Assembly: GCA_963803275.1 (NCBI GenBank)
Contig: CAWDLS010000002.1
Span: 99,905-163,904, forward strand
Reading direction: 5' to 3'
DNA from: an uncultured Gammaproteobacteria bacterium
GTDB lineage: Bacteria > Pseudomonadota > Gammaproteobacteria > UBA9214
DNA: 64,000 nucleotides
The notes below the pieces were generated by a model that saw only the letters and a program-made list of their open reading frames with translations, was not told where the DNA came from and did not search any database. Below are positions 1 through 54,302 of the stretch, one piece after another (within the stretch, counting starts at the first letter, position 1; each line of letters begins with the position of its first letter). The position numbers and the translations under genes are program-made.

Positions 1-207
1 CAGGGTTTCCTGCTCGTAGGACATGTAATCCTTGACGACCTCGACCAGGTTCGGAATCAGGTCATGACGGCGCTTGAGCTGAACATCGATCTGGCGCCAG
101 GCATTCTGCACCTGGTTCTTCAGGCCCACCATCCTGTTGTAAAGCAGGACACCCCAGAGCGGGATGGCGACGACAAGTGCAAGAATTACCCAGCCGATGT
201 TTCCCAT
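1..207 (-). CDS. LemA family protein (N-terminal 69 aa; remainder outside window)
   Basis: Minus-strand ORF from ATG at 207-205 preceded by GGAGA RBS; translation [56 protein letters not shown] matches the LemA N-terminal TM helix plus conserved [17 protein letters not shown] motif. Confidence 0.8.
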
Positions 208-335
208 GATGATCTCCTTAAGCAATCGTCAAGCGGAACGTGATGCGTGAAAACTGAAAACGTGAATGGTGGACAGGTAAATTGTATCCGGTTGGATCCA
301 GGCCGTCAGTCAACCTGTCCACATAGCTTCTCACT

Positions 336-1619
336 TCACGTTTCACGTGCCAGCGCACGATAGCCGATGTCGGTACGATAATAAACATCCGGCCAGTGTA
401 TCTGCCTGACACAGGCATAGGCCTGTCGCTGCGCCTCGGCGATGTCTGCACCCAGCGCACAGACGCACAGTACGCGCCCGCCGCTGGTCTTCACGACATC
501 GCCGTCCGCCACCGTTCCGGCATGAAATACCTTGCATGGCGTGTCGTCAGCCTGCGGCAAACCCTCAATGATATCGCCCCTGCGGTAGCTGTCCGGATAG
601 CCACCCGCGGCCATCACCACACCAAGCGCGGCACGTTCGTCCCACTCGGCCTCGACCGTGTCGAGCCGGCCTTCCAGCGCGGTGCGGCACAGTGCCACCA
701 GGTCCGAGCGCAGGCGGCACATGACGGGCTGGGTCTCGGGGTCACCGAAGCGCACGTTGAATTCCAGCACCTTCGGTACCCCGTCCGGGCCGATCATGAG
801 GCCGGCGTAAAGAAACCCGGTGAACGCGTTGCCTTCCGCCGCCATGCCGCGGATGGCCGGCAACATCACCTGCTGCATGATCCGATCGTGAAGCTCCGGT
901 GTCACGACCGGCGCCGGTGAACAGGCACCCATGCCGCCGGTATTGGGCCCGGTGTCACCGTCGCCACGTGCCTTGTGATCCTGCGAGGTGGCCAGCGGCA
1001 GGCAATGCTCACCATCCACCATGGCGATGAAACTCGCCTCCTCGCCCTGCAGGAACTCCTCGATGACGACGCGGTGACCGGCCTCGCCAAAGACGTTGCC
1101 GGAGAGCATGTCGCGCACGGCCGCTATGGCTTCCGCCTCGGTCTGTGCCAGTATCACGCCCTTGCCGGCGGCCAGACCGTCGGCCTTGACAACGATCGGA
1201 GTGCCCCGGGCACGCAGGTAGTCGCCGGCCGCGGCCGCCTCGGTGAAGGCGGCATACGCCGCCGTGGGTATGCCGTGGCGCCGGAGAAAATCCTTGGCGA
1301 AGGTCTTTGAACCTTCCAGCTGTGCGGCTGCCCGGGTCGGGCCAAAACACTTCAGGCCGACCGCCTGGAAGCGATCGACAACACCCGCAACCAGCGGCAC
1401 CTCGGGCCCGACGATGGTCAACCCGACGTCACGGGACTGAGCCAGCGCGATCAGTGCATCGATGTTCGTGACATCGACTGCAACATTTTCAACACCGGGT
1501 TCGAGCGCCGTCCCGGCATTGCCCGGGGCAACCAGCACGGTATCTGCGAGCGGTGACTGCGCGGCCTTCCACGCCAGCGCATGCTCGCGCCCGCCATTAC
1601 CGATGATCAGGATATTCAT
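336..1619 (-). CDS. purD: phosphoribosylamine--glycine ligase (GAR synthetase)
   Basis: 440-aa ORF; MNILIIGNGGREHALAWK N-terminus and ATP-grasp motifs typical of PurD; start taken at internal MNILIIG (ATG 1619). Confidence 0.9.
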   Translation of the reverse strand: MNILIIGNGGREHALAWKAAQSPLADTVLVAPGNAGTALEPGVENVAVDVTNIDALIALAQSRDVGLTIVGPEVPLVAGVVDRFQAVGLKCFGPTRAAAQLEGSKTFAKDFLRRHGIPTAAYAAFTEAAAAGDYLRARGTPIVVKADGLAAGKGVILAQTEAEAIAAVRDMLSGNVFGEAGHRVVIEEFLQGEEASFIAMVDGEHCLPLATSQDHKARGDGDTGPNTGGMGACSPAPVVTPELHDRIMQQVMLPAIRGMAAEGNAFTGFLYAGLMIGPDGVPKVLEFNVRFGDPETQPVMCRLRSDLVALCRTALEGRLDTVEAEWDERAALGVVMAAGGYPDSYRRGDIIEGLPQADDTPCKVFHAGTVADGDVVKTSGGRVLCVCALGADIAEAQRQAYACVRQIHWPDVYYRTDIGYRALARET

Positions 1620-1641
1620 GTTTATTGCCTTACCACGATTT

Positions 1642-1878
1642 ATGGCCACGGAATCCACGGAAGAACACGGAAAAATCCTGTATTAACAATTGCCACGGAA
1701 CCATACGGAAATACACGGAAGAAGAAATCTGTTATCGCATCGCGTAAAAAAATGCCTGAATACGTCTATCTGCAGGGGCATTTTACGCACCTGCAGGTTG
1801 ATTGAAGCCGCATTTGTCGGGTCATCTCCCGGGACAGGCAATAATTTTTCCGAGTTCTTCCGTGGATTCCGTGGCCAT
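1642..1878. mobile_element. MITE-like non-coding element bounded by perfect 25-bp terminal inverted repeats (ATGGCCACGGAATCCACGGAAGAAC)
   Basis: 1642-1666 is the exact reverse complement of 1854-1878; the 237-bp body has no ORF and carries an internal hairpin CTGCAGG-N13-CCTGCAG; sits between purH stop and purD start. Confidence 0.55.
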
Positions 1879-1894
1879 TATTTATATATCCGGT

Positions 1895-1917
1895 TTTTCG
1901 TGTAGTTCCGTGGCTAC
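1895..1917. repeat. solo degenerate TIR-like copy (TTTTTCGTGTAGTTCCGTGGCTAC)
   Basis: Same TTCCGTG...TTCCGTGGC unit as the TIRs of the neighbouring element. Confidence 0.35.
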
Positions 1918-1939
1918 TAGCTGTTCACGCCTCCCGCCA

Positions 1940-3502
1940 TCAGTGCCGGAAATGCCGCATGCCGGTGAACACCATCGCGATACCGTGCTCATCCGCGGCC
2001 GCGATCACCTCGTCATCACGCATCGAGCCGCCGGGTTGTATCACCGCCACGATACCCGCCTCCGCCGCCTGGTCGATTCCGTCGCGAAACGGGAAGAAGG
2101 CATCCGAGGCCATCACCGAACCCTGCACCTCGAGACCTTCGTCGGCCGCCTTGAGTGCGGCCACCCTGGCACTGTAGACGCGGCTCATCTGTCCGGCGCC
2201 GACCCCGATGGTCATGCCATCCCTGCAGTAGACGATGGCATTGGACTTGACGAACTTGCCGACGCGCCAGGCAAACAGCAGATCCTGCAGTTCATGCGCC
2301 GTCGGCGCACGCTGCGTGACAACCTTCAGGTCATCCGTACTGATCCGGCCCCGGTCGCGGTCCTGCACCAGCAGGCCGCCGTTGACACGCTTGAAGTCCA
2401 GCATGGGCACCGGCTCGTCCGTCCAGGCACCGCACTCCAGTACACGCACGTTCTTTTTTCCTGCCAGCACCGGCAGTGCGTCCGGGTCAACGACCGGTGC
2501 GATGATCACCTCGACAAACTGGCGCTCGATAATTGCGCGCGCGGTGGTTGTATCCAGCGGGCGGTTGAACGCAATGATGCCGCCGAACGCCGAGGTAGGA
2601 TCGGTCCGGAAGGCGCGATCATAGGCCTCGAGCGGATCGGACCCCAGGGCGACACCGCAGGGATTGGCATGCTTGACGATGACGCAGGCCGGCCCTTCGG
2701 TGAAGGACTTCACACATTCCAGCGCGGCATCGGTGTCCGCCATGTTATTGTAGGAAAGTTCCTTGCCCTGCAGCTGACGTGCCGTTGCGACCGAGGCCTC
2801 GCGCGGTGCCTGTTCGACATAGAAAGCGGCACGCTGGTGCGGATTCTCGCCGTAACGCATGGCCTGGGCCCGGCGGAACTGCAGGTTCAGGGTGTGCGGG
2901 AAATCGGCCCGCTCGCCGTCGGCATCGATCGCACCCAGGTAATTGGCGATGGCGCCATCGTAACGCGCCGTGTGCTCGAAGGCCTTTACGGCGAAGGTAT
3001 AACGCGTCGCCGGGGATACGGCATTACCGTTGGCGCGCAGCTCATCGAGCAGGAGCGGATAATCGGCACTGTCGACCACGACGGTGACCGCGGCATGGTT
3101 CTTGGCGGCAGCGCGCAACAGTGTCGGGCCGCCTATATCGATATTCTCGATCGCCGTCTGAAGGTCGCAGTCCGGACGCGCCACGGTCTGCTCGAACGGG
3201 TACAGATTCACCACCACCAGGTCGATGGGCACGATACCGTTGTCAGCCATGACCGCCTCGTCGGTGCCACGGCGCCCCAGAATACCGCCGTGGATCTTCG
3301 GATGCAGTGTCTTGACACGTCCGTCCATCATCTCCGGAAAACCGGTGAAGTCGGACACCTCGATGACGGGCACGCCCGCGCCGGTCAGCAGCCGCGCGGT
3401 TCCGCCGGTAGACAGTATCTCCACACCCAGTGCGTTCAGATCACGTGCAAGGTCGGCGATGCCGGTCTTGTCTGAAACACTGATAAGCGCACGCGCGATC
3501 AA
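1940..3502 (-). CDS. purH: bifunctional AICAR transformylase / IMP cyclohydrolase
   Basis: 520-aa ORF; MGS-like N-domain (SVSDKTGI...) and AICARFT domain; conserved position between fis and purD. Confidence 0.92.
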
Positions 3503-3507
3503 GGCGT

Positions 3508-3765
3508 TCAGTGTTCCATGTTATATTGCTTGAGCTTCTTGCGCAGCGTGCCGCGACTGATCCCGAGCATTTCCGCGGCCTGGCTCTGGTTGCCATCCAC
3601 ATAGTTCATGACGACATTGAGCAGAGCCGGTTCCACCTCGTTGAGCACCACGTGATACAGGTCATTTACCTTGTGACCGTGCAGGTCACCCAGGTACAGC
3701 TCGATGGCCGAGGTCACGCTGCGGCGAATCGGCTGCTTGCGGCGTTCGCGCCGGTGCTGCACATT
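3508..3765 (-). CDS. fis: DNA-binding protein Fis
   Basis: 86-aa product [12 protein letters not shown]...[28 protein letters not shown] with the Fis C-terminal HTH; start overlaps dusB stop. Confidence 0.9.
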
Positions 3766-4751
3766 CATGCCGCCAGCCCCTGCCGGTCCGCGCACCGGGC
3801 AAAAAAGTCTTGCACGCAACGCAATTGCGTCGCAGCGGTTTCCAGCCGGTTGACCTGCTCGCGGAAGGCATTGCCCGCGCGCTGTCCCTTGCTGTACCAG
3901 GCAATATGCTTGCGTGCCACGCGCACGCCGGTGTACTCGCCATAGAAGGCATACAGGTTCTCGAGATGCGCGGTGAGTAAACAGCAGACTTCCGCCGGCC
4001 CGGGTTCCGGCAGGTACCGGCCGGTGCGTATGAAATGGTCGATCTCGCGAAAGATCCACGGCCGCCCCTGCGCCGCACGTCCAATCATGACGGCGTCGGC
4101 TCCGGTGTAGTCCAGCACGGCGACGGCCTGCTCCGGCGTGGTGATATCGCCGTTGGCGATGACCGGTATGGTTACCGAGGCCTTGATTGCGCGAGTCGTG
4201 TCATGCTCGGCCGTGCCACGAAATCCGCAGGCACGGGTACGGCCATGCACCGCCAGCGCACGGATTCCGGCCTGTTCGGCGATACGCGCCACGTACAGGC
4301 CGTTCCTGTGCCCGGCATCCCAGCCGGTGCGTATCTTCAGCGTCACCGGCACGTTCACGGCACGCACCACGGCGTCCAGGATACGGCCAACCAGCGGCTC
4401 GTCCTGCAGCAGGGCCGAACCGGCCATGACATGACAGACCTTCTTTGCAGGACACCCCATATTGATATCGATGATCCGGGCACCGTGATCCACATTGAAG
4501 CGAGCCGCCTCCGCCATCATGCGCGGATCGGCGCCGGCAATCTGCACCGACACGGGTTCAGTTTCCCCGCAGTGATCGATGCGGCGCCGCGTCTTGACGC
4601 TGCCCCACAGCAGAGCGCTGGAGGACACCATTTCCGAAACGGCCAGACCGGCACCCTGCGCGCGGCACAGCTGCCGGAACGGCCTATCAGTGACACCGGC
4701 CATCGGGGCCAGCACAAGTTTGTTGGGTAATTTGAAAGAACCTGTATTCAC
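3765..4751 (-). CDS. dusB: tRNA-dihydrouridine synthase B
   Basis: LAPMAGVTDRPFRQLC...IDINMGCPAKKV...GRAAQGRPWIFREI closely matches E. coli DusB; no in-frame ATG, so start placed at GTG 4751 (uncertain). Confidence 0.85.
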   Translation of the reverse strand: MNTGSFKLPNKLVLAPMAGVTDRPFRQLCRAQGAGLAVSEMVSSSALLWGSVKTRRRIDHCGETEPVSVQIAGADPRMMAEAARFNVDHGARIIDINMGCPAKKVCHVMAGSALLQDEPLVGRILDAVVRAVNVPVTLKIRTGWDAGHRNGLYVARIAEQAGIRALAVHGRTRACGFRGTAEHDTTRAIKASVTIPVIANGDITTPEQAVAVLDYTGADAVMIGRAAQGRPWIFREIDHFIRTGRYLPEPGPAEVCCLLTAHLENLYAFYGEYTGVRVARKHIAWYSKGQRAGNAFREQVNRLETAATQLRCVQDFFARCADRQGLAA

Positions 4752-4866
4752 CGGTGATACGACGTTTGATATGTCTGTTCTAATCCCGGAATTAAGGACG
4801 GGAGATAATACCCGCTTGCGTGAAGATGTAAAAGCGTTATAAAAAAATGTTTGAAAAATGCAGGCT
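4752..4866 (-). promoter_or_regulatory. probable dusB-fis promoter / leader region
   Basis: 115-bp AT-rich spacer upstream of dusB, downstream of the preceding convergent-free gene; inferred from position only. Confidence 0.3.
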
Positions 4867-5652
4867 TCAGAGAAACCCGAACTGGAACGAGACCGCCTTG
4901 TCGCCCGGGTCCTGCACTTCCAGTACAACCTGCACCGGCGTGTGCGACGGTAAACCGGCAGTGTAGTCGAAGTGCGCGTCGAGGTATTCCGATGGCCTGA
5001 AACGCCGCATGGCGACGGGATTGCCGTTGATATCGATAAAACTCACCTCGAAAACAGGATAGGGCTGGGTAAAATCGGCACGGTTCTCGAATGATGCATT
5101 GATCAGCAAGGCGCCTTCAGCCACCGGATGCTGGCGCACGTCGCGCTCGATCATGGCCAGTTGCGACAGGTCGACACGCAGTGGCAAATCGCAGCGCAGC
5201 AGCGTGCAGAATTGCTCAAGCGCCGGGCGCCAGCCAGGGTCGGCGGCGAGTGTGCCGCGGTTGAAATAGGTCCATTGCATGCCCAGCAGCGACAACAGCA
5301 CGACGATTGCCGAGATACTGAAAAAATCCCTGCCCTGCAGGGACTGTTGCTCCCAGGCCGAACCCGTCAGCGTAGGCGGTACGGCGGTGGCAGACAGTGC
5401 CGGTTCCTCGTCGATAGCGGCGCTCTCCTCAACATCGACGCCCCCCATGCGGGCGGCCTGGCTGTGCATCGCAAGGCTGCCGGCCGCGTCCACCGCCTTG
5501 CGTACCGCGACAAGGTTCTCATAGAGGTAATCGACTGCGTTGTACAGCTGCCGGCATTCGCCGCAGCGCACCCTGCCCGCCGCCTTGCTCAGCTGCGTAG
5601 CCGACACCTGGAAAACCACCGAGCAATTCGGGCAGTAGGTATACATGGGCAA
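4867..5652 (-). CDS. MJ0042-type zinc-ribbon + DUF3426 domain protein
   Basis: N-terminus MPMYTYCPNCSVVFQV...RCGECRQLY (CPxC...CxxC zinc ribbon), central Ala/Ser-rich linker, TM segment and C-terminal DUF3426-like domain. Confidence 0.65.
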   Translation of the reverse strand: MPMYTYCPNCSVVFQVSATQLSKAAGRVRCGECRQLYNAVDYLYENLVAVRKAVDAAGSLAMHSQAARMGGVDVEESAAIDEEPALSATAVPPTLTGSAWEQQSLQGRDFFSISAIVVLLSLLGMQWTYFNRGTLAADPGWRPALEQFCTLLRCDLPLRVDLSQLAMIERDVRQHPVAEGALLINASFENRADFTQPYPVFEVSFIDINGNPVAMRRFRPSEYLDAHFDYTAGLPSHTPVQVVLEVQDPGDKAVSFQFGFL

Positions 5653-5758
5653 GAGTGTACCTCAATAAACGTCCAGGGTTGAATGAACCGCTGCACCATC
5701 TCGCCCGTGATTAACGGCCATGGAATACAGGAGCACACGGAATAATGATTGAATAGAA

Positions 5759-6012
5759 ATGGCCACGGACACACACGGAAGCACACAGAAAAACACGGAA
5801 AAATGTTTTCAGGCTGCCATTGCGGGCTGGACCGCAGGCATGGCCGCTACGGGGCCGTCGGCAACTACGCCTGCTGTGCCAGGGGATCCTGCCGTTGCTG
5901 ACCGGATAGCGGCGGATGAAACCGGCAGCATTCAGTCATTATTGACAGATCGCAATTATCAAGTCTTTCTCTCCGTGTCCTTCCGTGTGCTTCCGTGTCC
6001 TTCCGTGGCCAT
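5759..6012. mobile_element. second MITE-like copy with imperfect inverted ends built from ATGGCCACGGA / TTCCGTG units
   Basis: Left end ATGGCCACGGACACACACGGAAGCACAC... and right end ...TCCGTGTGCTTCCGTGTCCTTCCGTGGCCAT are imperfect reverse complements; no ORF; between Zn-ribbon gene start and prmA stop. Confidence 0.5.
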
Positions 6013-6027
6013 TTTTTGTTCAGTCAT

Positions 6028-6050
6028 TTTTCCGTGTTTTTCCGTGGCCG
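6028..6050. repeat. solo TIR-like copy (TTTCCGTGTTTTTCCGTGGCCG)
   Basis: Same repeat unit immediately distal to the 5759-6012 element. Confidence 0.35.
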
Positions 6051-6072
6051 TTATTCTTGATCACACCGTGAC

Positions 6073-6954
6073 TCACGCCGCACGCCGTGTGCCCGCCAGC
6101 AGCACCCACTCTCCACGCTGCTGCGGTGGCTCGAAATCGATCCATGCCGCATAGGACGACCTGACGGCGTCGGCCTGTTCGTCGAGGATACCGGTCAGCA
6201 GGAGGGTGCCGCCGGGCCGCAGGTAACCGGCCAGTTCCGTGGCCAGTTCCTGCAGCGGATTGGCCAGTATATTGGCAATCACCAGGTCTACCGCTGCCGG
6301 GTCGAGGTCCGCCGGCGCGCCGACCCGGAAATCCGAAGCGACTCGGTTGATGCGTGCATTCCCGCGGGTAGACTCGAGTGCCATGGGATCAATGTCCGTA
6401 GCATACACGCGCCCGGCACCGAGCTTGCTCGCGGCAATCGCCAGGATGCCCGAGCCGCAACCATAGTCGATCACCTGCCGTCCGGCCGGGGGGTGACGGT
6501 CCAGCCATTCGAGACACAGGGCCGTGGTGGCATGGGTGCCGGTCCCGAAGGCGAACCCCGGGTCGAGCGTCACCACGACGGCATCGGTGTCCGGGCAGGT
6601 TTCGCCGGATGGACACACCCACAGGCGCTTGCCAAAACGCAACGGCCGGAACGTCTCCCGCCAGGTGGAGGACCAGTCACGGTCTTCCAGCACGGAGACC
6701 GACAGGCCCGGCAAGGGACCAGCCAGCGCGCTGCGCAGCGCCTGTTCGACGGCCTGCGCATCCACCGCCGCGGAAAACAACGCCACGACACGCGGGTTAC
6801 GCCACAGCGGCCGGGCGCCGGGTACCGGCTCGATAAGCCGTTCCCCGGCCGCATCCTGCAGCGTCACGGACTGCGCCCCGGCTTCTTCCAGGGCCGCCGT
6901 CACCGCCTCGACCTGTTCACGCAGTACATCGATCGAGAATTGCAGCCAGCTCAT
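6073..6954 (-). CDS. prmA: ribosomal protein L11 methyltransferase
   Basis: MSWLQFSIDV... N-terminus and VIDYGCGSGILAIAA SAM-binding motif; start taken at internal M (6954). Confidence 0.88.
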   Translation of the reverse strand: MSWLQFSIDVLREQVEAVTAALEEAGAQSVTLQDAAGERLIEPVPGARPLWRNPRVVALFSAAVDAQAVEQALRSALAGPLPGLSVSVLEDRDWSSTWRETFRPLRFGKRLWVCPSGETCPDTDAVVVTLDPGFAFGTGTHATTALCLEWLDRHPPAGRQVIDYGCGSGILAIAASKLGAGRVYATDIDPMALESTRGNARINRVASDFRVGAPADLDPAAVDLVIANILANPLQELATELAGYLRPGGTLLLTGILDEQADAVRSSYAAWIDFEPPQQRGEWVLLAGTRRAA

Positions 6955-7002
6955 CGGCGGTCGACAGGCAGACAGCATGCACGGCACATCACCGGCCTGC
7001 GG

Positions 7003-7500
7003 CTACCGGTCATTTTCGACGGGAAAATCGGCGAATGTGTCCCTGACGCGGCGCGAACTGTACAGGTAGCCTGTGATGACAATCGCCAGGCCTGCCTGCA
7101 CCCATCCCAGCAAGTGGATTCGAGTCAGGCTACCGGTCAGCAGGGGTGCAAAGACGATGGGAACATTCAGTATCGCTGCCGCGGCCAGCAGGTTCGCCCC
7201 GTTTTTCCAGAGTCTTCTCACAAGTACGCCAGCCCCGGGTTTTCTCTTTGAGAGTCCGTATAAAAATATCAGAACAGGCACTGCCGCCAGCAGTGCAACC
7301 AGCAGGGATAAGTCGTCCGGATACAGCAAATACCGCAGATTCTCGACATCCTTCACACCCGGCGCAACGTGACTCAGCATACGCGTGACCAGCAGGATTA
7401 TGAACGGACGCAGCAGGTAGAGCATGACAAGCCACAGCTCGGCACTGGGCTTGAGGCAAAGGTATTTGTCATATTCAGTGAAATCGTAGAGTTTTGACAC
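7003..7500 (-). CDS. small inner-membrane protein (about 4 TM helices), hypothetical
   Basis: 165-aa ORF with hydrophobic segments LWLVMLYLLRPFIILLV / LLVALLAAVPVLIFLYGL / LLAAAAILNVPIVFAPLL; no catalytic motif seen. Confidence 0.5.
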   Translation of the reverse strand: MSKLYDFTEYDKYLCLKPSAELWLVMLYLLRPFIILLVTRMLSHVAPGVKDVENLRYLLYPDDLSLLVALLAAVPVLIFLYGLSKRKPGAGVLVRRLWKNGANLLAAAAILNVPIVFAPLLTGSLTRIHLLGWVQAGLAIVITGYLYSSRRVRDTFADFPVENDR

Positions 7501-7590
7501 GCTGCACCTCTCCGGCGTAATTCAGCGAATCCGGATCAGCCCATGAAGCAGAGACACGCGAACCGTCGTGAATCCCGACCAGGCCGCACT

Positions 7591-8931
7591 CTACAGCCCG
7601 AGTTTCTTTTCCAGGTAATGGATGTCCGTCCCGCCGGCCATGAACGCCGCGTCCGTGACGATATCACGCTGCAGCTGCACGTTCGACTTGATGCCCTCGA
7701 TGACGATCTCGTTCAGCGCGACCCGCATCCGCGCCAGCGCCGAGGCGCGCGTCTCGCCGTGCGCGATCAGTTTGCCGATCATGGAATCATAGTAGGGCGG
7801 TACCCGGTAACCGTTGTAGATATGGGTATCCATGCGGATACCCGGCCCGCCCGGCGCATGGTAGTTGCTGATGGTGCCCGGTGACGGCATGAAGCTTTGC
7901 GGATCCTCCGCGTTGATGCGGCATTCAATGGCGTGGCCGCGCATCGTGATGTCCTTTTGCCGGTAGGAGAGGCCGTTGCCCGCCGCGATATAGAGCTGTT
8001 CCTTGACGATATCGACCCCGGTCACCATTTCCGTGACCGGGTGTTCCACCTGCACGCGGGTGTTCATCTCGATGAAATAGAACTCGCCGTTCTCGTACAG
8101 GAATTCAAAGGTACCGGCGCCGCGGTACTTGAGCTTCCTGCAGGCATCCGCGCAGCGCTGACCCATTTCCCTGCGCTGCTTCTCCGTGATACCCGGCGCC
8201 GGGGCTTCCTCCACCACCTTCTGGTGCCGGCGCTGCATGGAACAGTCGCGCTCGCCGAGGTGAATGGCATCACCCGCACCGTCACCCAGCACCTGGAACT
8301 CGACATGGCGCGGTGTTTGCAGGAATTTCTCCATGTAGACGACGTCATTGCTGAATGCGTTCTTCGCCTCGGTGCGGGTCAGGGAGATCGCGCCCAGCAG
8401 TGCCGCCTCGGCGTGTACCACTCGCATACCGCGCCCGCCACCACCACCGGCGGCCTTGATGATGATCGGATAGCCAATCCCGCGTGCCATCTTCAGGTTG
8501 GCATCATCGTCGTCTCCCAGCGACCCGTCCGAGCCGGGGACACAGGGCACACCGGCCTCCTGCATGGCACGGATGGCGGCGACCTTGTCACCCATGATGC
8601 GGATCGTTTCAGGGCGTGGCCCGATGAAGATGAAACCGCTGCGCTCGACCTGCTCGGCGAAGTCGTCGTTTTCGGAAAGAAAGCCGTAGCCGGGATGGAT
8701 CGCACCGGCATCGGTCACCTCGGCGGCACTGATGATGGCCGGGATGTTCAGGTAACTGTCCGAGGACTGGGGCGGACCGATACAGACGCTTTCGTCCGCC
8801 AGCAGCACGTGCTTGAGGTCGCGGTCCGCGCTGGAATGTACGGCCACGGTGCTGATGCCCAGCTCGTGGCACGAACGCAGTATGCGCAGGGCAATCTCGC
8901 CCCGGTTGGCTATGACGACCTTCTTCAGCAT
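7591..8931 (-). CDS. accC: acetyl-CoA carboxylase biotin carboxylase subunit
   Basis: [19 protein letters not shown]... plus ATP-grasp motifs; ATG at 8931 shares a base with accB stop. Confidence 0.93.
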
Positions 8932-9383
8932 CAAGTGATCACAAACAGGGGTTGCCCGTATTCCACGGGCTGGCCGTTATCTACGAGTATTGCGGAGACC
9001 TTGCCGGCCGCATCGGCCTCGATCTGGTTGAGCATCTTCATGGCCTCGATGATACACAGGGTATCGCCCACACCGACTGTCTGGCCAAGGTCGACAAACG
9101 GCTTGGCGCCGGGAGATGGCGCCGCGTAGAACGTGCCGACCATCGGCGAGGTGACAGAGTGCCCGGCAGGCGCAGCGGGTTCTGCCGGCGCATCCTGTGC
9201 TGGTGCCGGTGCGGGCGCCGGTGCCGTCATCACGGCGTATGACGGATAGTACCCCGGCGGCGCCACGCCGGCCGTTCCGGGGCGACTGATGCGTACCGAC
9301 TCCTCGCCCTCGTGGATCTCGATCTCGGCGATATTCGACTCTTCCAGCAGCTCAATCAGTTTCTTGACCTTGCGAATGTCCAT
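8931..9383 (-). CDS. accB: acetyl-CoA carboxylase biotin carboxyl carrier protein
   Basis: [16 protein letters not shown]..., Pro/Ala linker, biotinylation motif [11 protein letters not shown]. Confidence 0.9.
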
Positions 9384-9516
9384 GTTAAAGCCCGAGTAGT
9401 TTCATATTGGGTGCGCTGTGCGCATATCGTACGGCGTTGAACGTTAAACCCTTCTCACTCCGGAAGCGGGGATTCAAAACATAATCAACGATCTTCGCTA
9501 TTGATATTGCCTGTTC

Positions 9517-9540
9517 TTGCGTGTGATTCGGTGGCCATTA
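9517..9540. repeat. degenerate solo copy of TTCCGTG...GGCCAT repeat (CTTGCGTGTGATTCGGTGGCCATT)
   Basis: Between aroQ stop and accB start; shares GTGTGATTC-GTGGCCATT with the TIR consensus. Confidence 0.3.
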
Positions 9541-9981
9541 TTTCTTTTCCAGATAGCGAACTGCCGCCTGCAAAGCCAGTTCATAGCCGATCGGACCCAG
9601 CCCCGAAATCACCCCGATCGCGATGTCCGAGAAGAACGACTGCTTCCTGAAGGCCTCGCGGGCATGGACATTGGAGAGGTGGACCTCGATAAAGGGGATA
9701 CCGACGGCTTGCAGGGCATCCCGCAAACCGATGCTGGTATGGGTCAGGGCGGCCGGGTTGATAATGATAAAATCAATACCTTGCGACGGCGCTTCCTGGA
9801 TCCTGCTGATCAGTTCGTGCTCGGCATTGCTCTGGAAACTGTTCAACGAGACACCGGCTTCATGTGCGTGGACCTGCAGGCCGGTAAGGATCTGATCCAG
9901 TGTTGTTGCGCCATAGTGCTCCGGCTCGCGCGTGCCCAGCAGGTTCAGGTTGGGGCCGTTGATTACGAGGATACCCGGCAT
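9538..9981 (-). CDS. aroQ: type II 3-dehydroquinate dehydratase
   Basis: [24 protein letters not shown]...[18 protein letters not shown] is the canonical type II DHQase sequence. Confidence 0.9.
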
Positions 9982-13221: not shown

Positions 13222-13226
13222 CGCAG

Positions 13227-13883
13227 TCAGGGTTCGATCCGGTCACCGGGTAGTCCATGCTGACGCAGGCCGGACATAAGCGCGACGTTAAATGCGATCG
13301 AGATACGTTGTTCACTGGACCTGTTCTCCTCAACGTGATGCTCCAGCCACGCCGGAAATAACAGCAGATTTCCTTCACGCGGAGGGATTTTCACCGTGAA
13401 TGAATTGACGAGATTGGGTTCCTGGAAGGGCAACAGCAGGTAGCGCATGGGTCGCCCGAAGTCTTCGAGTACGAAAACGCCGCTGTCATTGGGAATCCTT
13501 ACATAGTAACAGCCGCTCAGCACCAGGGGATTCGGCATCCCTGCCGGTGACTGATGGGAATGCACGGTATTCGAGTTGCCGAAAACGTTGACATTGGCCC
13601 ACATGGATGTCACTCGCAATCCGCTGGACGCCTGTCCAAATCCGTAGTCCTTGCCGATCTGGCCAAGCTTCCCGGTAATAAACCCGGCAAGCTGCCGGAA
13701 TTCCGCTTTCAAATGCAATTTACCGTGGCTCTGCCATCCACCGCGGTTGGAGTAGTGAACACCGGGGTCGCTTTTCATTTCAGCCATGACTGCAGCGACC
13801 AACTTTTCGTTGGTGGAAACATAATCCGGCATCTCGAAGGTCCAGAGCGGCGTGCCAAATAACACAGACATGTTGTCGGACAT
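13227..13883 (-). CDS. putative 2OG-Fe(II) oxygenase (TIGR02466-like family)
   Basis: MSVLFGTPLWTFEMPDYV...VHSHQSP...EHHVEENRS resembles the conserved 2OG-Fe(II) oxygenase-superfamily hypothetical family; start chosen downstream of the upstream gene's stop (M at 13883; 13871 also possible). Confidence 0.5.
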   Translation of the reverse strand: MSDNMSVLFGTPLWTFEMPDYVSTNEKLVAAVMAEMKSDPGVHYSNRGGWQSHGKLHLKAEFRQLAGFITGKLGQIGKDYGFGQASSGLRVTSMWANVNVFGNSNTVHSHQSPAGMPNPLVLSGCYYVRIPNDSGVFVLEDFGRPMRYLLLPFQEPNLVNSFTVKIPPREGNLLLFPAWLEHHVEENRSSEQRISIAFNVALMSGLRQHGLPGDRIEP

Positions 13884-13980
13884 GGAAAGACCCATTAATA
13901 AGACACGCTGCAGCGCCCTACCCTTACTTGACTCAGAGCGATTCCGGGAAGTCGCGCCTGAAAGAGCCAGGCGAGATGCC

Positions 13981-29931: not shown

Positions 29932-29954
29932 GCCATCTGTTCACGAGACAACCC

Positions 29955-30857
29955 ATGCCGAACAGCCACTATCAATCTGCCGTATCACCTGATTACTGGA
30001 AAAATCTGAGCCCGGATCTGCATATTACCGACTTTCCGTTCAAGGACTTTCCACATTTCCCGATTCCGGATTCTCAAATCCTGCAGAGCTTCCAGAACCT
30101 GAAACAGGAGGGGTATTTTCAAACCCCGCCTGTCATCCCTAAGGCTATGACGGCACGCCTTGCCGCGACGGTTCACAACATCGTATCGGCCGGTTTCCCT
30201 GCCGTGTTCGCATTTGTATATGACGAATACTGGGGTATTGTCAGAGGAATAGAGCAAATCTTCAAACCTGCGCTCGGTGAAAACTATTTGTTGAGTCCGG
30301 GTGACATGTGGATTTGGCATGTAGACGAGCACGGCCGAAGCTCGGGCTGGGGCCCGCACAGAGACTTGCTGGATACAACCAGCCTTCGAACCGACGGGAG
30401 CCCACGAATTCTCACGGTTTGGGTTCCGCTCACTGATGCAACTCCTCTCAACGGATGCATCTATCTGGTACCGACTCATCGGGACCCGGATTACCCCGAC
30501 AAACTGAATGAGCGATCCGTAGCCTTGGATACGTTGCAGAGCATCCGCGCCCTGCCCGCGGCTTCAGGCAGCCTGCTCGGCTGGAGTCCGGTTATCCTGC
30601 ACTGGGGTGGCCGTCACAGTGGCCACAGCGAAGGAGCAAGAATCAGCGTCGCCTTTTATCTCAATGATGGCGCTCCTGATCTCGACGGCGGGATTTCGGC
30701 CAGAGAAAGTACATTTGTGCCTTTCTGGTACAGGCTTGGTGCAATAGGTGCGATGTTATCGCTGTTCGATGGCAGCCCGCTTGCCAGTGATTTGCGTTTC
30801 CCGACCGCACTTAAGTCTGTATTGCAACCCTATCTTGACCGGGTAAGACGCAGTTGA
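29955..30857 (+). CDS. PhyH-like 2OG-Fe(II) oxygenase
   Basis: WIWHVDEHG ... GPHRD ... HWGGRHSGH; HxD/E...H facial triad arrangement. Confidence 0.5.
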   Translation: MPNSHYQSAVSPDYWKNLSPDLHITDFPFKDFPHFPIPDSQILQSFQNLKQEGYFQTPPVIPKAMTARLAATVHNIVSAGFPAVFAFVYDEYWGIVRGIEQIFKPALGENYLLSPGDMWIWHVDEHGRSSGWGPHRDLLDTTSLRTDGSPRILTVWVPLTDATPLNGCIYLVPTHRDPDYPDKLNERSVALDTLQSIRALPAASGSLLGWSPVILHWGGRHSGHSEGARISVAFYLNDGAPDLDGGISARESTFVPFWYRLGAIGAMLSLFDGSPLASDLRFPTALKSVLQPYLDRVRRS

Positions 30858-30943
30858 CAGCGGATTCGAGCCTGTCAATGAGCCACTGCGCCGCTGTCCT
30901 CGTGAAGGTGTTCCACGCCTGCCATTTCTGCAGCACAACATAG

Positions 30944-38523: not shown

Positions 38524-38670
38524 GATTGACTCCAAATAATTTGTTAAATATCGATATTAACATTCAATTTTATTGTTAACCGTTAGTTGTTGTCAGTACC
38601 TAAATAGCTCCGCGAGCACTGACAGTGAACCGAACCGGCATGACAATAGCTGCACAGGCACCATTATTGT

Positions 38671-38686
38671 TGCAACTAGCGGGCCA
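38671..38686 (-). promoter_or_regulatory. candidate sigma-54 (-24/-12) promoter TGGCCC-GCTAG-TTGCA upstream of PEP-CTERM paralog B
   Basis: Minus-strand reading of 38686-38671 gives TGGCCCGCTAGTTGCA: GG and GC at the canonical 12-nt offset with a TTGCA -12 box; about 150 bp upstream of the start codon in a 716-bp AT-rich intergenic region. Confidence 0.35.
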
Positions 38687-39251
38687 AATTTTATTATTTA
38701 AGGAATAACAGTGTTATAAATATTCGCCCGTTCATAACACTATGGCTGTTGCGCCGGATATGTAAGAATTCCCAACAGGATTATAACCATTCAGGCGCCG
38801 GTGATACCGCACGGAGATGATGTTATAAAATATCTAAAGATACAAGAGTTGCACTGAAACACAGAACAGATAAGGAGGTCCCTGGACATTTGTAAATAAT
38901 CACGACAGAATTCTCTTGCCCATCCGATGTAGCCGCAGTGCCAAGCGTCAACTGGTCAAGCACAACTGGAAAACCCGCACGTCGAAACTATGCCACATCG
39001 CTACGGATCCACAATAATATCGTGCGATACCGAAAGCTGATCAGCTTGACAAATAATCCGCCTACCAACAATCATGTGGCCGCGAAAGCTGACCGGATAG
39101 ATTTCTGCCCCTTCAAGGCATGTATTGCTTATTAATAATACAATCTGAACCGTACTCGGCGCCAGTCGTCGCGACCCGAACACCAGGATAAACGGAGGCG
39201 TTACAATAAACAACTCAAAATCCCACATTAGGGACTTCCGGAGGAGACCAA

Positions 39252-53656: not shown

Positions 53657-53838
53657 TCCCTCCCCTGCAGGGAGCAGGATGCATTGTTTTGTTTCCGTGT
53701 AATTCCGTGTGCTCCCGTGGCCATCATCCTGCACGCAGAATAGCGCCGGAAAAGATATGTCTCTCTCTCCCTACGGAGTAGGAATGCATTGATTTTTTCC
53801 GTGTTATTCCGTGTGTTTCCGTGTGCTTCCGTGGCCAT
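53657..53838. repeat. two tandem direct copies of the TTCCGTG...CCGTGGCCAT unit, each preceded by a short palindrome
   Basis: Copy 1 about 53661-53724 (CCCTGCAGGG palindrome, GTTTCCGTGTAATTCCGTGTGCTCCCGTGGCCAT); copy 2 about 53766-53838 (…TTTTCCGTGTTATTCCGTGTGTTTCCGTGTGCTTCCGTGGCCAT); TTCCGTG units recur at 10-11 bp spacing; convergent intergenic region. Confidence 0.45.
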
Positions 53839-53864
53839 TAATTATTTACCCCACCACTCACGCC

Positions 53865-54302
53865 TCATGCCTGCGCCAGCTGCCGGTCGCGGCCTTCCGC
53901 ATACCTTTGCCAGGTCTTGAAGCGCCGCCTGACGTACCTCAGCAGGGCGGAATAATCCTCGAAAAACAGCTCGAAGCTGTTCTCCGCCGGCTCGTCGAAC
54001 TCGCAGTAGTCGTTGGTGTATTCGCGACAGATCAGCGGCCGGTCGTCGTAGATACCGCAGCGCCCGTCCTTCTGCAGGTGGGTACAGGTGTTGTTGATCA
54101 GCAGGTACCAGCCGTCTTCATCCTTGTAGGCCTGGATATCCCTGTGTGACAGCTGCCAGAGCAGGTGATCGAAATCATGCATGGAGCGCGGCGTCGCCAG
54201 TTGCTCCGTGATGTAGGTACAACACTTTGAATTGGTACAGAAACCGCACTTGTTTGCTGCCGAGATCTTCACGCCAAGCGGGATATTCTTCACTGTTTTC
54301 AT
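53865..54302 (-). CDS. YkgJ/UPF0153-family Cys-cluster (zinc/iron-chelating) protein
   Basis: CGFCTNSKCCTYI ... CTHLQKDGRCGIY ... CREY Cys pattern of PF03692. Confidence 0.6.
   Translation of the reverse strand: MKTVKNIPLGVKISAANKCGFCTNSKCCTYITEQLATPRSMHDFDHLLWQLSHRDIQAYKDEDGWYLLINNTCTHLQKDGRCGIYDDRPLICREYTNDYCEFDEPAENSFELFFEDYSALLRYVRRRFKTWQRYAEGRDRQLAQA

Follow-up and report, generated by a model that had tools for sequence, protein, structure and literature searches.

A long-resident palindromic repeat with arms of CACGGAA boxes in the purH-purD spacer of an uncultured gammaproteobacterium

The spacer between the purH and purD genes of an uncultured gammaproteobacterium (lineage UBA9214; assembly GCA_963803275.1) contains a 237-bp element with perfect 25-bp terminal inverted repeats (TIRs), which raises the question whether a miniature inverted-repeat transposable element (MITE) has recently jumped into this housekeeping locus or a repeat of a different kind has long resided there. 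The element occupies positions 1642-1878 of the window, that is, the whole stretch of 64,000 nucleotides analysed here (positions 99,905 to 163,904 of contig CAWDLS010000002.1), and a previous reading of the sequence alone (hereafter, the sequence-only reading) took the perfect TIRs to imply very recent mobilisation by a transposase encoded elsewhere. The alignments of orthologous spacers described below show that the purH-purD copy descends from an ancestor common to the window lineage and at least one other, and is not a recent insertion; the perfect repeat is a matter of consensus retention, not of a recent jump. The 237-bp feature is one long-resident copy of a repeat family, closer to repetitive extragenic palindromic (REP) repeats and REPINs (REP doublets forming hairpins) than to a freshly jumped miniature transposon.

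The inverted repeat itself is longer than first described. Positions 1642-1666 (ATGGCCACGGAATCCACGGAAGAAC) match the minus strand of 1854-1878 with 0 mismatches, as the sequence-only reading had it, and no dinucleotide-preserving shuffle of the whole window yields a match of this type, even with up to 3 mismatches; the complementarity extends over 35 nt (34/35, 97%; 1642-1676 and 1844-1878, hereafter arms A and A'). Also in agreement with that reading, the body between the arms has its own hairpin (1765-1801) and no credible open reading frame (ORF); what does overlap is a purD start extended too far and an ORF antisense to purH. In the 64-kb window, arms were detected with an nhmmer profile made from arms of other genomes. 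This profile identified 11 arms, all in four intergenic gaps and none elsewhere (Table 1), with four of them in the purH-purD gap; arm A lies 22 nt upstream of the start codon of purD, which is on the minus strand. All the other copies noticed previously were recovered, and two arms, 1689-1723 and the weak 5712-5746, are additions to that list. The names assigned to the flanking genes are backed by Pfam matches in the corresponding region of a sister assembly (the ENA contig L119; the related loci are designated by L and a number) and in window ORFs, including aroQ (DHquinase_II in Pfam).

These arms belong to an abundant family that apparently has not been described previously. A scan of species-representative genomes with the pattern TCCGTG-N2-4-TTCCGTGGCCAT yielded at least 118 loci, and the related loci examined total 885 kb, with 289 arms by the profile. 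Among the matches listed, nearly all loci come from uncultured sulfur-type Gammaproteobacteria akin to Thiohalobacter, Thioalkalivibrio, Ectothiorhodospiraceae and Thiohalomonadaceae, where a genome typically contributes many of them, and one comes from the cultured Thiohalobacter thiocyanaticus Hrh1. Real copies are present also at six loci, on contigs of 0.45-2.2 Mb, in a metagenome-assembled genome of Gemmatimonadales, as well as in Phycisphaera, Polyangia, Ottowia and Lysobacteraceae assemblies; a few matches in other taxa are due to chance and lie inside genes. An arm has two parts: an ATGGCC cap, in which the 6-bp palindrome TGGCCA is embedded, and then a series of CACGGAA boxes, three in 182 of 273 arms and from two to five overall. 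The boxes are the TTCCGTG units of the sequence-only reading, which gave their spacing as 10-11 bp; the boxes are confirmed and the period is corrected to 9 or 10 bp. The box is near-invariant and the 2-4 nt inter-box spacers carry little information, a contrast that is partly built in because arm selection required ACGGAA with no more than one mismatch, which inflates the box columns. Complete elements are non-coding, with a mean arm-to-arm identity of 85% (76 elements). None of the 46 elements that were placed relative to genes is inside a gene, with 30 in co-directional, 12 in convergent and 4 in divergent gaps. The interior is not conserved between copies in gammaproteobacterial genomes; in the Gemmatimonadales genome, the copies share an interior. 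An Rfam scan of the whole window gave no match at the gathering threshold, and a literature search for the arm and REP sequences returned only chance primer matches. A reading of the arm as a small ORF (ATG GCC ACG GAA...) was rejected because the 9-10 nt period breaks the reading frame, and resemblances to a sigma-54 promoter, a PurR box and a DnaA box were rejected on both spacing and sequence when compared with the consensus sites.

The history of the copy was traced by comparing the purH-purD spacers of 80 metagenomic relatives. Where the PurD identity is 71% or less, the spacers are 15-190 bp long (two are about 360 bp) and contain no arms. Among the closer relatives, the spacer is filled in L121 (451 bp), L127 (= L012; 513 bp), L042 (325 bp) and L131 (133 bp, with a decayed simple palindrome), and is not filled in L122 (254 bp, without arms), L128/L129 (79 bp) and L130/L132 (52 bp, with a remnant). 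L121, in which PurD is 85% identical, carries the same composite as the window, in an alignment that spans the full spacer: the identity is 94% for arm A, 89% for arm A' and 71% for the interior, compared to 77% and 88% for the flanking purD and purH DNA, respectively. Two further arms in this gap also have orthologs, arm B in L121, and arm B', with a similar outer flank, in L121 and, as judged by eye, apparently in L127 and L131. The interior (1724-1843), which has no counterpart elsewhere among the at least 118 loci, includes a decayed REP hairpin of the GTAG type (GGTGCGTAAAATGCCCC on the minus strand at 1775-1791, with the stem at 1765-1801), and the same hairpin is intact in the L121 interior as GGTGCGTAAACGCACC. 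Because the orthologous composite, with an alignable interior at 71% identity, occurs in L121, the purH-purD copy is old, and the claim of very recent mobilisation finds no support. Reconstruction of the empty site gave no exact boundaries, the orthologous flanks being only 70-88% identical. Furthermore, base 1666, the 25th of the repeat and a C in the window, reads T in the sister assembly L119, so the 25/25 perfection is not fixed in the population.

Comparison of the orthologous spacers, the check suggested in the sequence-only reading, indicates that elements are both gained and lost, given that filled and empty purH-purD spacers both occur. The spacer between prmA and the DUF3426 gene is 423 bp long in the window and 71-103 bp, without arms, in L127, L128 and L131; because this gap is filled in the window lineage only, gain does occur. 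In L121, extra arms of a different spacer subtype are located 4 nt from an existing arm, and L006 has four arms at a site where the window has a 136-bp spacer. The same reading had allowed that the element would be a conserved regulatory structure if all relatives carried the sequence; the relatives are not uniform, so it is not simply that. A cis-regulatory element specific to purHD fares no better, being absent in L122, L128, L129 and the relatives with PurD identity of 71% or less, and present beside unrelated genes.

A broader functional explanation, namely, that the CACGGAA boxes bind a chromosomal protein or that the hairpin is a signal for mRNA processing or stability, so that the array is immobile and kept for its function in the host, appears unlikely to us, although several observations speak for it. 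In the orthologous copy the arms (89-94%) are better conserved than the interior (71%), the boxes are conserved with free spacers, with a period of 9-10 bp the boxes would face roughly the same side of the helix, divergent gaps, that is, those on the promoter side, are under-represented (4/46), and the predicted stems are strong. In particular, the transcribed strand of both the purH-purD and the prmA spacers of the window folds far better than shuffles (z = -6.7 and -8.9, respectively). Correia elements provide a precedent for both binding of integration host factor and RNase III cleavage (PMC2649163). However, copies reside beside unrelated genes (pur, acc, prmA, the HAD hydrolase gene and many others), close relatives have no copies at the same sites (L122, L128 and L129 for purH-purD; L127, L128 and L131 for prmA), single-nucleotide polymorphisms (SNPs) accumulate in the element within the population, and arm mismatches show no sense-strand wobble bias. 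There is, moreover, no Rfam match and no promoter-like or clear terminator-like site; an intrinsic terminator was specifically considered and rejected, since the only match, a weak one, lies within an arm and the stems are not generally followed by a T-tract.

What persists in these genomes is the convergent doublet. Neighbouring profile-defined arms no more than 500 nt apart form 146 pairs, with 102 convergent, 44 tandem and 0 divergent; the end-to-end lengths peak at 76-77 and 84-87 bp, with a tail to about 500 bp, and the commonest form is a plain palindrome of 76-87 bp with a loop of about 20 nt. Paired arms outscore solo arms (median 30.4 vs 18.6 bits, Mann-Whitney p = 0.003, for arms outside the search pattern only). 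The spacers of the two arms in one element agree in 38 of 70 and 19 of 56 cases, compared to 18.4 and 4.7 on random re-pairing, a control that mixes genomes and thereby overstates the significance; the agreement also holds in pairs longer than 135 bp. Given this agreement, the 237-bp element and the second, 254-bp copy in the window each consist of two arms that truly belong together, with foreign DNA between them in the loop. The convergent doublet is the persisting unit, and the solo arms are its decayed leftovers. An RNAalifold analysis of 24 simple palindromes shifted the register due to the repeated boxes, and arm-by-arm comparison was used instead; within a single arm, only a 6-bp G-T wobble hairpin is possible. 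REPINs are defined by over-representation of inverted doublets, better conservation of doublets and the status of singlets as remnants (PMC3116915). In the present family, inverted doublets are over-represented and foldable, and are better conserved than singlets. The definition of the REP unit itself, a short imperfect palindrome with a GTAG-like 5' tetranucleotide, does not fit the CACGGAA arms.

Two observations made on the arms and their surroundings are recorded here. At least 26 of 271 arms have tandem heptads (GTGAGNN)n directly on their outer side; the orientation of the heptads is constant, and they are mirror-symmetric on both sides of a doublet, in 2-15 units and in variants that depend on the genome (GTGAGAC, GTGAGGA, GTGAGAA, GTGAAAC); arrays are located at L042:2030-2110, L037:2870-3270, L033:950-975 and 1110-1150, L004:3925-3975 and in L047 and L053, with weak remnants at window 53849-53869. 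A Vicinamibacterales chromosome (OZ252293.1; L114:1880-1960) has five ACGGAA units with an 11-bp period (ACGGAAtggcc / gtacc / tgatc...) and no ATGGCC-capped palindrome; this run may be unrelated to the family or a distant cousin.

The footprint of insertion is where the interpretation of the element as a classical MITE, that is, a deletion derivative of an insertion sequence (IS) recently mobilised by a DDE transposase encoded elsewhere, can be assessed most directly. Across 76 elements and boundary offsets from -4 to +1, exact flanking repeats of 2-8 bp are no more frequent than expected by chance in a test that is blind to a palindromic 2-bp AT duplication, and the only excesses, of the self-complementary AT and GGCC, fall inside the cap. 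Genuine MITEs in the same genomes are readily recognised by duplications of about 10 bp or of TA, so a duplication would have been seen. Furthermore, no IS or transposase with ATGGCCACGGAA... ends was found in the at least 118 loci, the tested window ORFs, plasmids, phages and viral contigs, whole genomes being outside this scope: a BLAST search of plasmids and phages with the consensus palindrome and an exact-pattern scan of viral contigs gave no match, and ten window ORFs, eight of them picked for low GC content at third codon positions (GC3), have no transposase domains in Pfam, the low-GC3 ORFs encoding tetratricopeptide-repeat glycosyl- and sulfotransferases or having no Pfam match. Four pairs of arms located 2-5 kb apart have ordinary housekeeping genes between them; the genes tightly flanked by arms encode inositol monophosphatase, NrdR, hemerythrin, an ABC permease and similar proteins; and the protein families encountered repeatedly close to arms (histidine kinases, ABC ATPases, sigma-54 activators) are large and paralogous, with no transposases among them. 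No Y1 transposase is encoded among the arm-flanked genes of the at least 118 loci, the whole source genome and its relatives again being outside the scope.

The family nevertheless has much of the appearance of a MITE. The window copy has the TIRs (25/25 exact, 34/35 overall), the elements are small (54-503 bp), non-coding and multi-copy, the arms of one element are matched, orthologous spacers are filled and empty, near-identical arms in several phyla suggest a transferable enzyme, and the Gemmatimonadales copies share an interior, like amplified MITEs. The ends of Mu, Tn7 and IS21 have multiple phased sub-terminal binding sites, which is also in keeping with a transposon origin. Against these points stand the absence of a target-site duplication at any boundary offset and of an IS with matching ends in the searched sets, ends of the form AT...AT, not TG...CA, and a purH-purD copy that predates the split from L121, so that we consider a classical MITE quite improbable. 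The description of the family as MITE-like and mobile holds insofar as these are non-coding, multi-copy, intergenic inverted repeats with matched arms that are gained and lost; mobilisation as a classical MITE, and its recency, are not borne out.

Some copies of the palindrome do travel inside actual MITEs, of which two kinds were found in the related genomes. The first has outer inverted repeats GAATGGCRCTTACTTAAG(TCCAAAT), which we take to resemble IS231/IS4-type ends, and duplicates about 9-11 bp of its target; behind an identical left end, the same slot is occupied by a CACGGAA palindrome, a GTAG-type REP doublet or neither (L059:693-844, L067:1888-2046, L018:1480-1620, L054:4824-4965, two copies in L014, L021:3515-3701, L021:5883-6070 and L074:5891-6055). 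The second is about 210 bp long, with ends GTGCTTTTTCAATCTGATAATGACGGAT flanked by cTA...TAg, like an IS630-type target, and the CACGGAA palindrome follows directly after its left arm (L061:4722-4912 and 7500-7690, L082:1645-1830, L083, L021:4207-4397, L063, L110). As a side observation, the arm of this second MITE includes a GATAATGA/TCATTATC motif that recalls a Fur box. The classical REP GTAGGGTGCGTTTTACGCACC, with a GTAG head and a hairpin and often in inverted doublets, is a separate family with 189 heads in the 885 kb; it is enriched 20-60 nt inside the arms, so that REP hairpins occur within CACGGAA doublets (e.g. L006:4530-4580, L037:2895-2915, L058:45-65 and 200-260), and the decayed copy at 1775-1791 is the single one in the window.

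These composites could mean that the palindrome spreads solely as the core of MITEs, either of the GAATGGCRCTTACTTAAG type with a duplication of about 10 bp or of the TA-flanked GTGCTTTTTCAA type, and that the window copies have lost their outer ends. Composites with outer TIRs and duplications are indeed frequent in the related genomes, several being near-identical within one genome. Nevertheless, this explanation seems very improbable: the outer repeats of neither MITE have left any trace in the window, even with 3-4 mismatches allowed, the flanks of most simple palindromes are unrelated, outer TIRs are missing from the Gemmatimonadales copies, and the inner arms would need to survive longer than the ends responsible for their movement. 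In other copies of the same outer MITE, unrelated REP doublets take the place of the palindrome, or there is no palindrome at all. Because the first MITE alternatively holds GTAG-REP doublets in the same slot, the CACGGAA palindrome acts as an interchangeable insert, similar to a REPIN.

Taken as a whole, the evidence makes it somewhat probable that the elements form an intergenic, genome-wide, non-autonomous palindromic repeat family, similar to REPINs and to bacterial interspersed mosaic elements (BIMEs) but with 'foldback' arms, on the box arrays of which an enzyme acts in trans. Conservation of the boxes together with free variation of the spacers fits sequence-specific recognition by a protein better than pairing alone. 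Given that the boxes are conserved, the spacers vary and the boxes come in mirror-image sets, a sequence-specific protein may recognise each box, one per helical turn. This protein most likely would be a trans-acting transposase or recombinase, possibly acting on folded single-stranded DNA, and insertion would proceed without target-site duplication, preferentially in or beside existing palindromes, in a manner resembling the proposals for REPINs and single-stranded-DNA transposases. Located within or at the ends of transcription units, the copies are probably co-transcribed, and by analogy their stems of 25-70 bp could serve as processing or stability elements; such effects on operon transcripts are likely to be a by-product, as in Correia elements (PMC2649163).

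Several observations weigh against this interpretation. The recognition model for the REP-associated tyrosine transposase (RAYT) is not directly transferable because the arms lack the short GTAG-headed hairpin, and no cognate enzyme was identified in the loci, the window, the plasmids, the phages or the viral contigs, although its absence is not established. Arms that are perfect over 32 nt occur in only 2 of 76 pairs. Mismatches between arms include 153 transversions and 156 transitions, and those compatible with wobble pairing are not concentrated on the sense strand (29 vs 36); because the mismatches show neither a transition bias nor a sense-strand wobble bias, there is no positive evidence for selected RNA pairing. 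Between the window and L119, 2 of the 5 SNPs over window 1-7523 fall inside the 237-bp element, one of them in a box, so the constraint is not absolute, and this argues against its being very strong on the arms. Orthology of arms beyond L121 amounts to short flank similarities judged by eye, as in the case of the purH-proximal arm and its outer flank (GTGAGACGTGA...), which seem to be common to L127 and L131. The mixing of genomes in the re-pairing control likewise counts on this side.

Among known systems, the closest counterparts are the REPINs and REP/BIME repeats associated with RAYTs (Bertels & Rainey 2011, PMC3116915), which are likewise short, extragenic, present in many copies per genome and capable of forming a hairpin from an inverted doublet. 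Shared features include the over-representation and better conservation of doublets, higher-order clusters, the lack of target duplication and long vertical persistence at orthologous sites (PMC3116915), and the CACGGAA palindrome fills the same slot of the carrier MITE as the GTAG-type REP doublets. In contrast to REPINs, the CACGGAA arm consists of three direct boxes and a TGGCCA-containing cap, not of a small imperfect palindrome with a GTAG head, no gene for a RAYT or another enzyme was found beside the arms, and near-identical arms occur in several phyla, whereas inheritance of the REPIN-RAYT system is described as largely vertical. Bacterial MITEs such as Correia/CREE of Neisseria, ERIC, Nezha and Chunjie (PMC10969869, PMC2229807, PMC2649163) resemble the family in the inverted repeats of 25-35 bp, the length of 76-500 bp, the lack of coding capacity, the intergenic location, the co-transcription with neighbours inferred here and the long stems that are potential RNase III substrates. 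They differ in that the CACGGAA family lacks a target-site duplication, whereas TA is duplicated by Correia elements, and has no parent IS that was found, interiors that are unconserved between gammaproteobacterial copies and arms made of tandem sub-repeats, from 2 to 5 in number. Several recognition sites per end, and inverted ends made of tandem short sub-repeats around a variable middle, are known from foldback-type transposons (Drosophila FB) and from the ends of Mu, Tn7 and IS21. The CACGGAA elements have such tandem sub-repeat inverted ends with a variable middle. The foldback, Mu, Tn7 and IS21 elements, however, make target duplications, have known transposases and have longer sub-repeats (about 19-31 bp), in contrast to the CACGGAA family, with its shorter sub-repeats, no duplication and no linked enzyme.

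A bolder possibility, which we put forward tentatively and regard as doubtful, is that the family represents a distinct class of long-lived intragenomic replicator that parallels REPINs in function, with recognition by way of phased 7-bp boxes in place of GTAG hairpins and no target duplication. The mobiliser would be an enzyme, or a DNA-binding protein that has been domesticated, and would itself have been transferred between phyla (Gammaproteobacteria, Betaproteobacteria, Gemmatimonadota, Planctomycetota, Myxococcota), and MITEs would repeatedly take up the palindromes, or REPINs, as exchangeable cores. Should this be the case, vertically persistent bacterial repeats would have a second architecture besides REPINs, which would offer a route to asking why such repeats are tolerated or useful; the system may be open to experiment because the cultured T. 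thiocyanaticus Hrh1 carries a copy. Apart from this possibility, the perfection of an inverted repeat does not testify to recent transposition, palindromes between genes are able to move as cores of unrelated MITEs, and the arm profile accounts for many oversized spacers in conserved operons of uncultured Gammaproteobacteria.

Table 1. Arms and interiors of CACGGAA-box elements in the 64-kb window (positions are those of the window; scores are from nhmmer)
Feature	Position	Strand	Partner	Score (bits)	Remarks
Arm A	1642-1676	+	1844-1878	46.9	ATGGCC cap, three CACGGAA boxes
Solo arm B	1689-1723	+		25.9	ATTGCC cap, three boxes; within the A/A' pair; repeat families D1 and D9
Interior of 237-bp element	1724-1843				unique sequence with decayed GTAG-type REP hairpin
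Arm A'	1844-1878	-	1642-1676	35.9
Decayed solo arm B'	1894-1917	-		9.5	E 0.07; adjoins purH stop codon
Weak outer arm	5712-5746	+	6025-6051	8.7	ACGGCC cap
Inner arm of second copy	5759-5805	+	5966-6012		four boxes
Interior of second copy	5806-5965				GC-rich
Inner arm of second copy	5966-6012	-	5759-5805		four boxes
Outer arm	6025-6051	-	5712-5746		two boxes, GGCCGT cap
Decayed solo arm	9506-9540	-		15.0	cap TAATGGCC (minus strand) overlaps aroQ stop codon; upstream of accB
Same-orientation arm 1	53689-53724	-		31.4	three boxes; gap between HAD hydrolase gene and convergent CxxCxxCC-domain gene
Same-orientation arm 2	53792-53838	-		35.5	four boxes; same gap as arm 1

The other window copies show how varied the arrangement of arms can be. 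The site between prmA and the DUF3426 gene is a doublet nested in a doublet, in which both outer arms have the unusual ACGGCC cap; the predicted RNA fold of this spacer is one long nested stem, with the outer arms as the outer stem. The two same-orientation arms near 53.7 kb lie within a diverged local tandem duplication (53657-53838) with units of about 105 nt, each of which contains a small hairpin whose loop includes GGA (CCTGC-AGGGA-GCAGG and CCTAC-GGA-GTAGG), followed by ATGCATTG; the stem changes between the two small hairpins are compensatory. The duplicated unit also copies the motif CAATGCATTCC, which is found at this site only, and the module of this motif and the hairpin upstream of the arms was rejected as a feature of the family, being part of the local tandem duplication.

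Two minor observations concern the remainder of the window. Divergence from L119 is heavy at window 7590-9800, across accC-accB, and the accC gene of L119 is split in two, which suggests either that this segment has recombined or that strains were joined into a chimera in assembly. Three long gaps of 0.7-1.0 kb, delineated with a crude GC3-based gene finder at 13222-13980, 29932-30943 and 38536-39251, are without CACGGAA arms.

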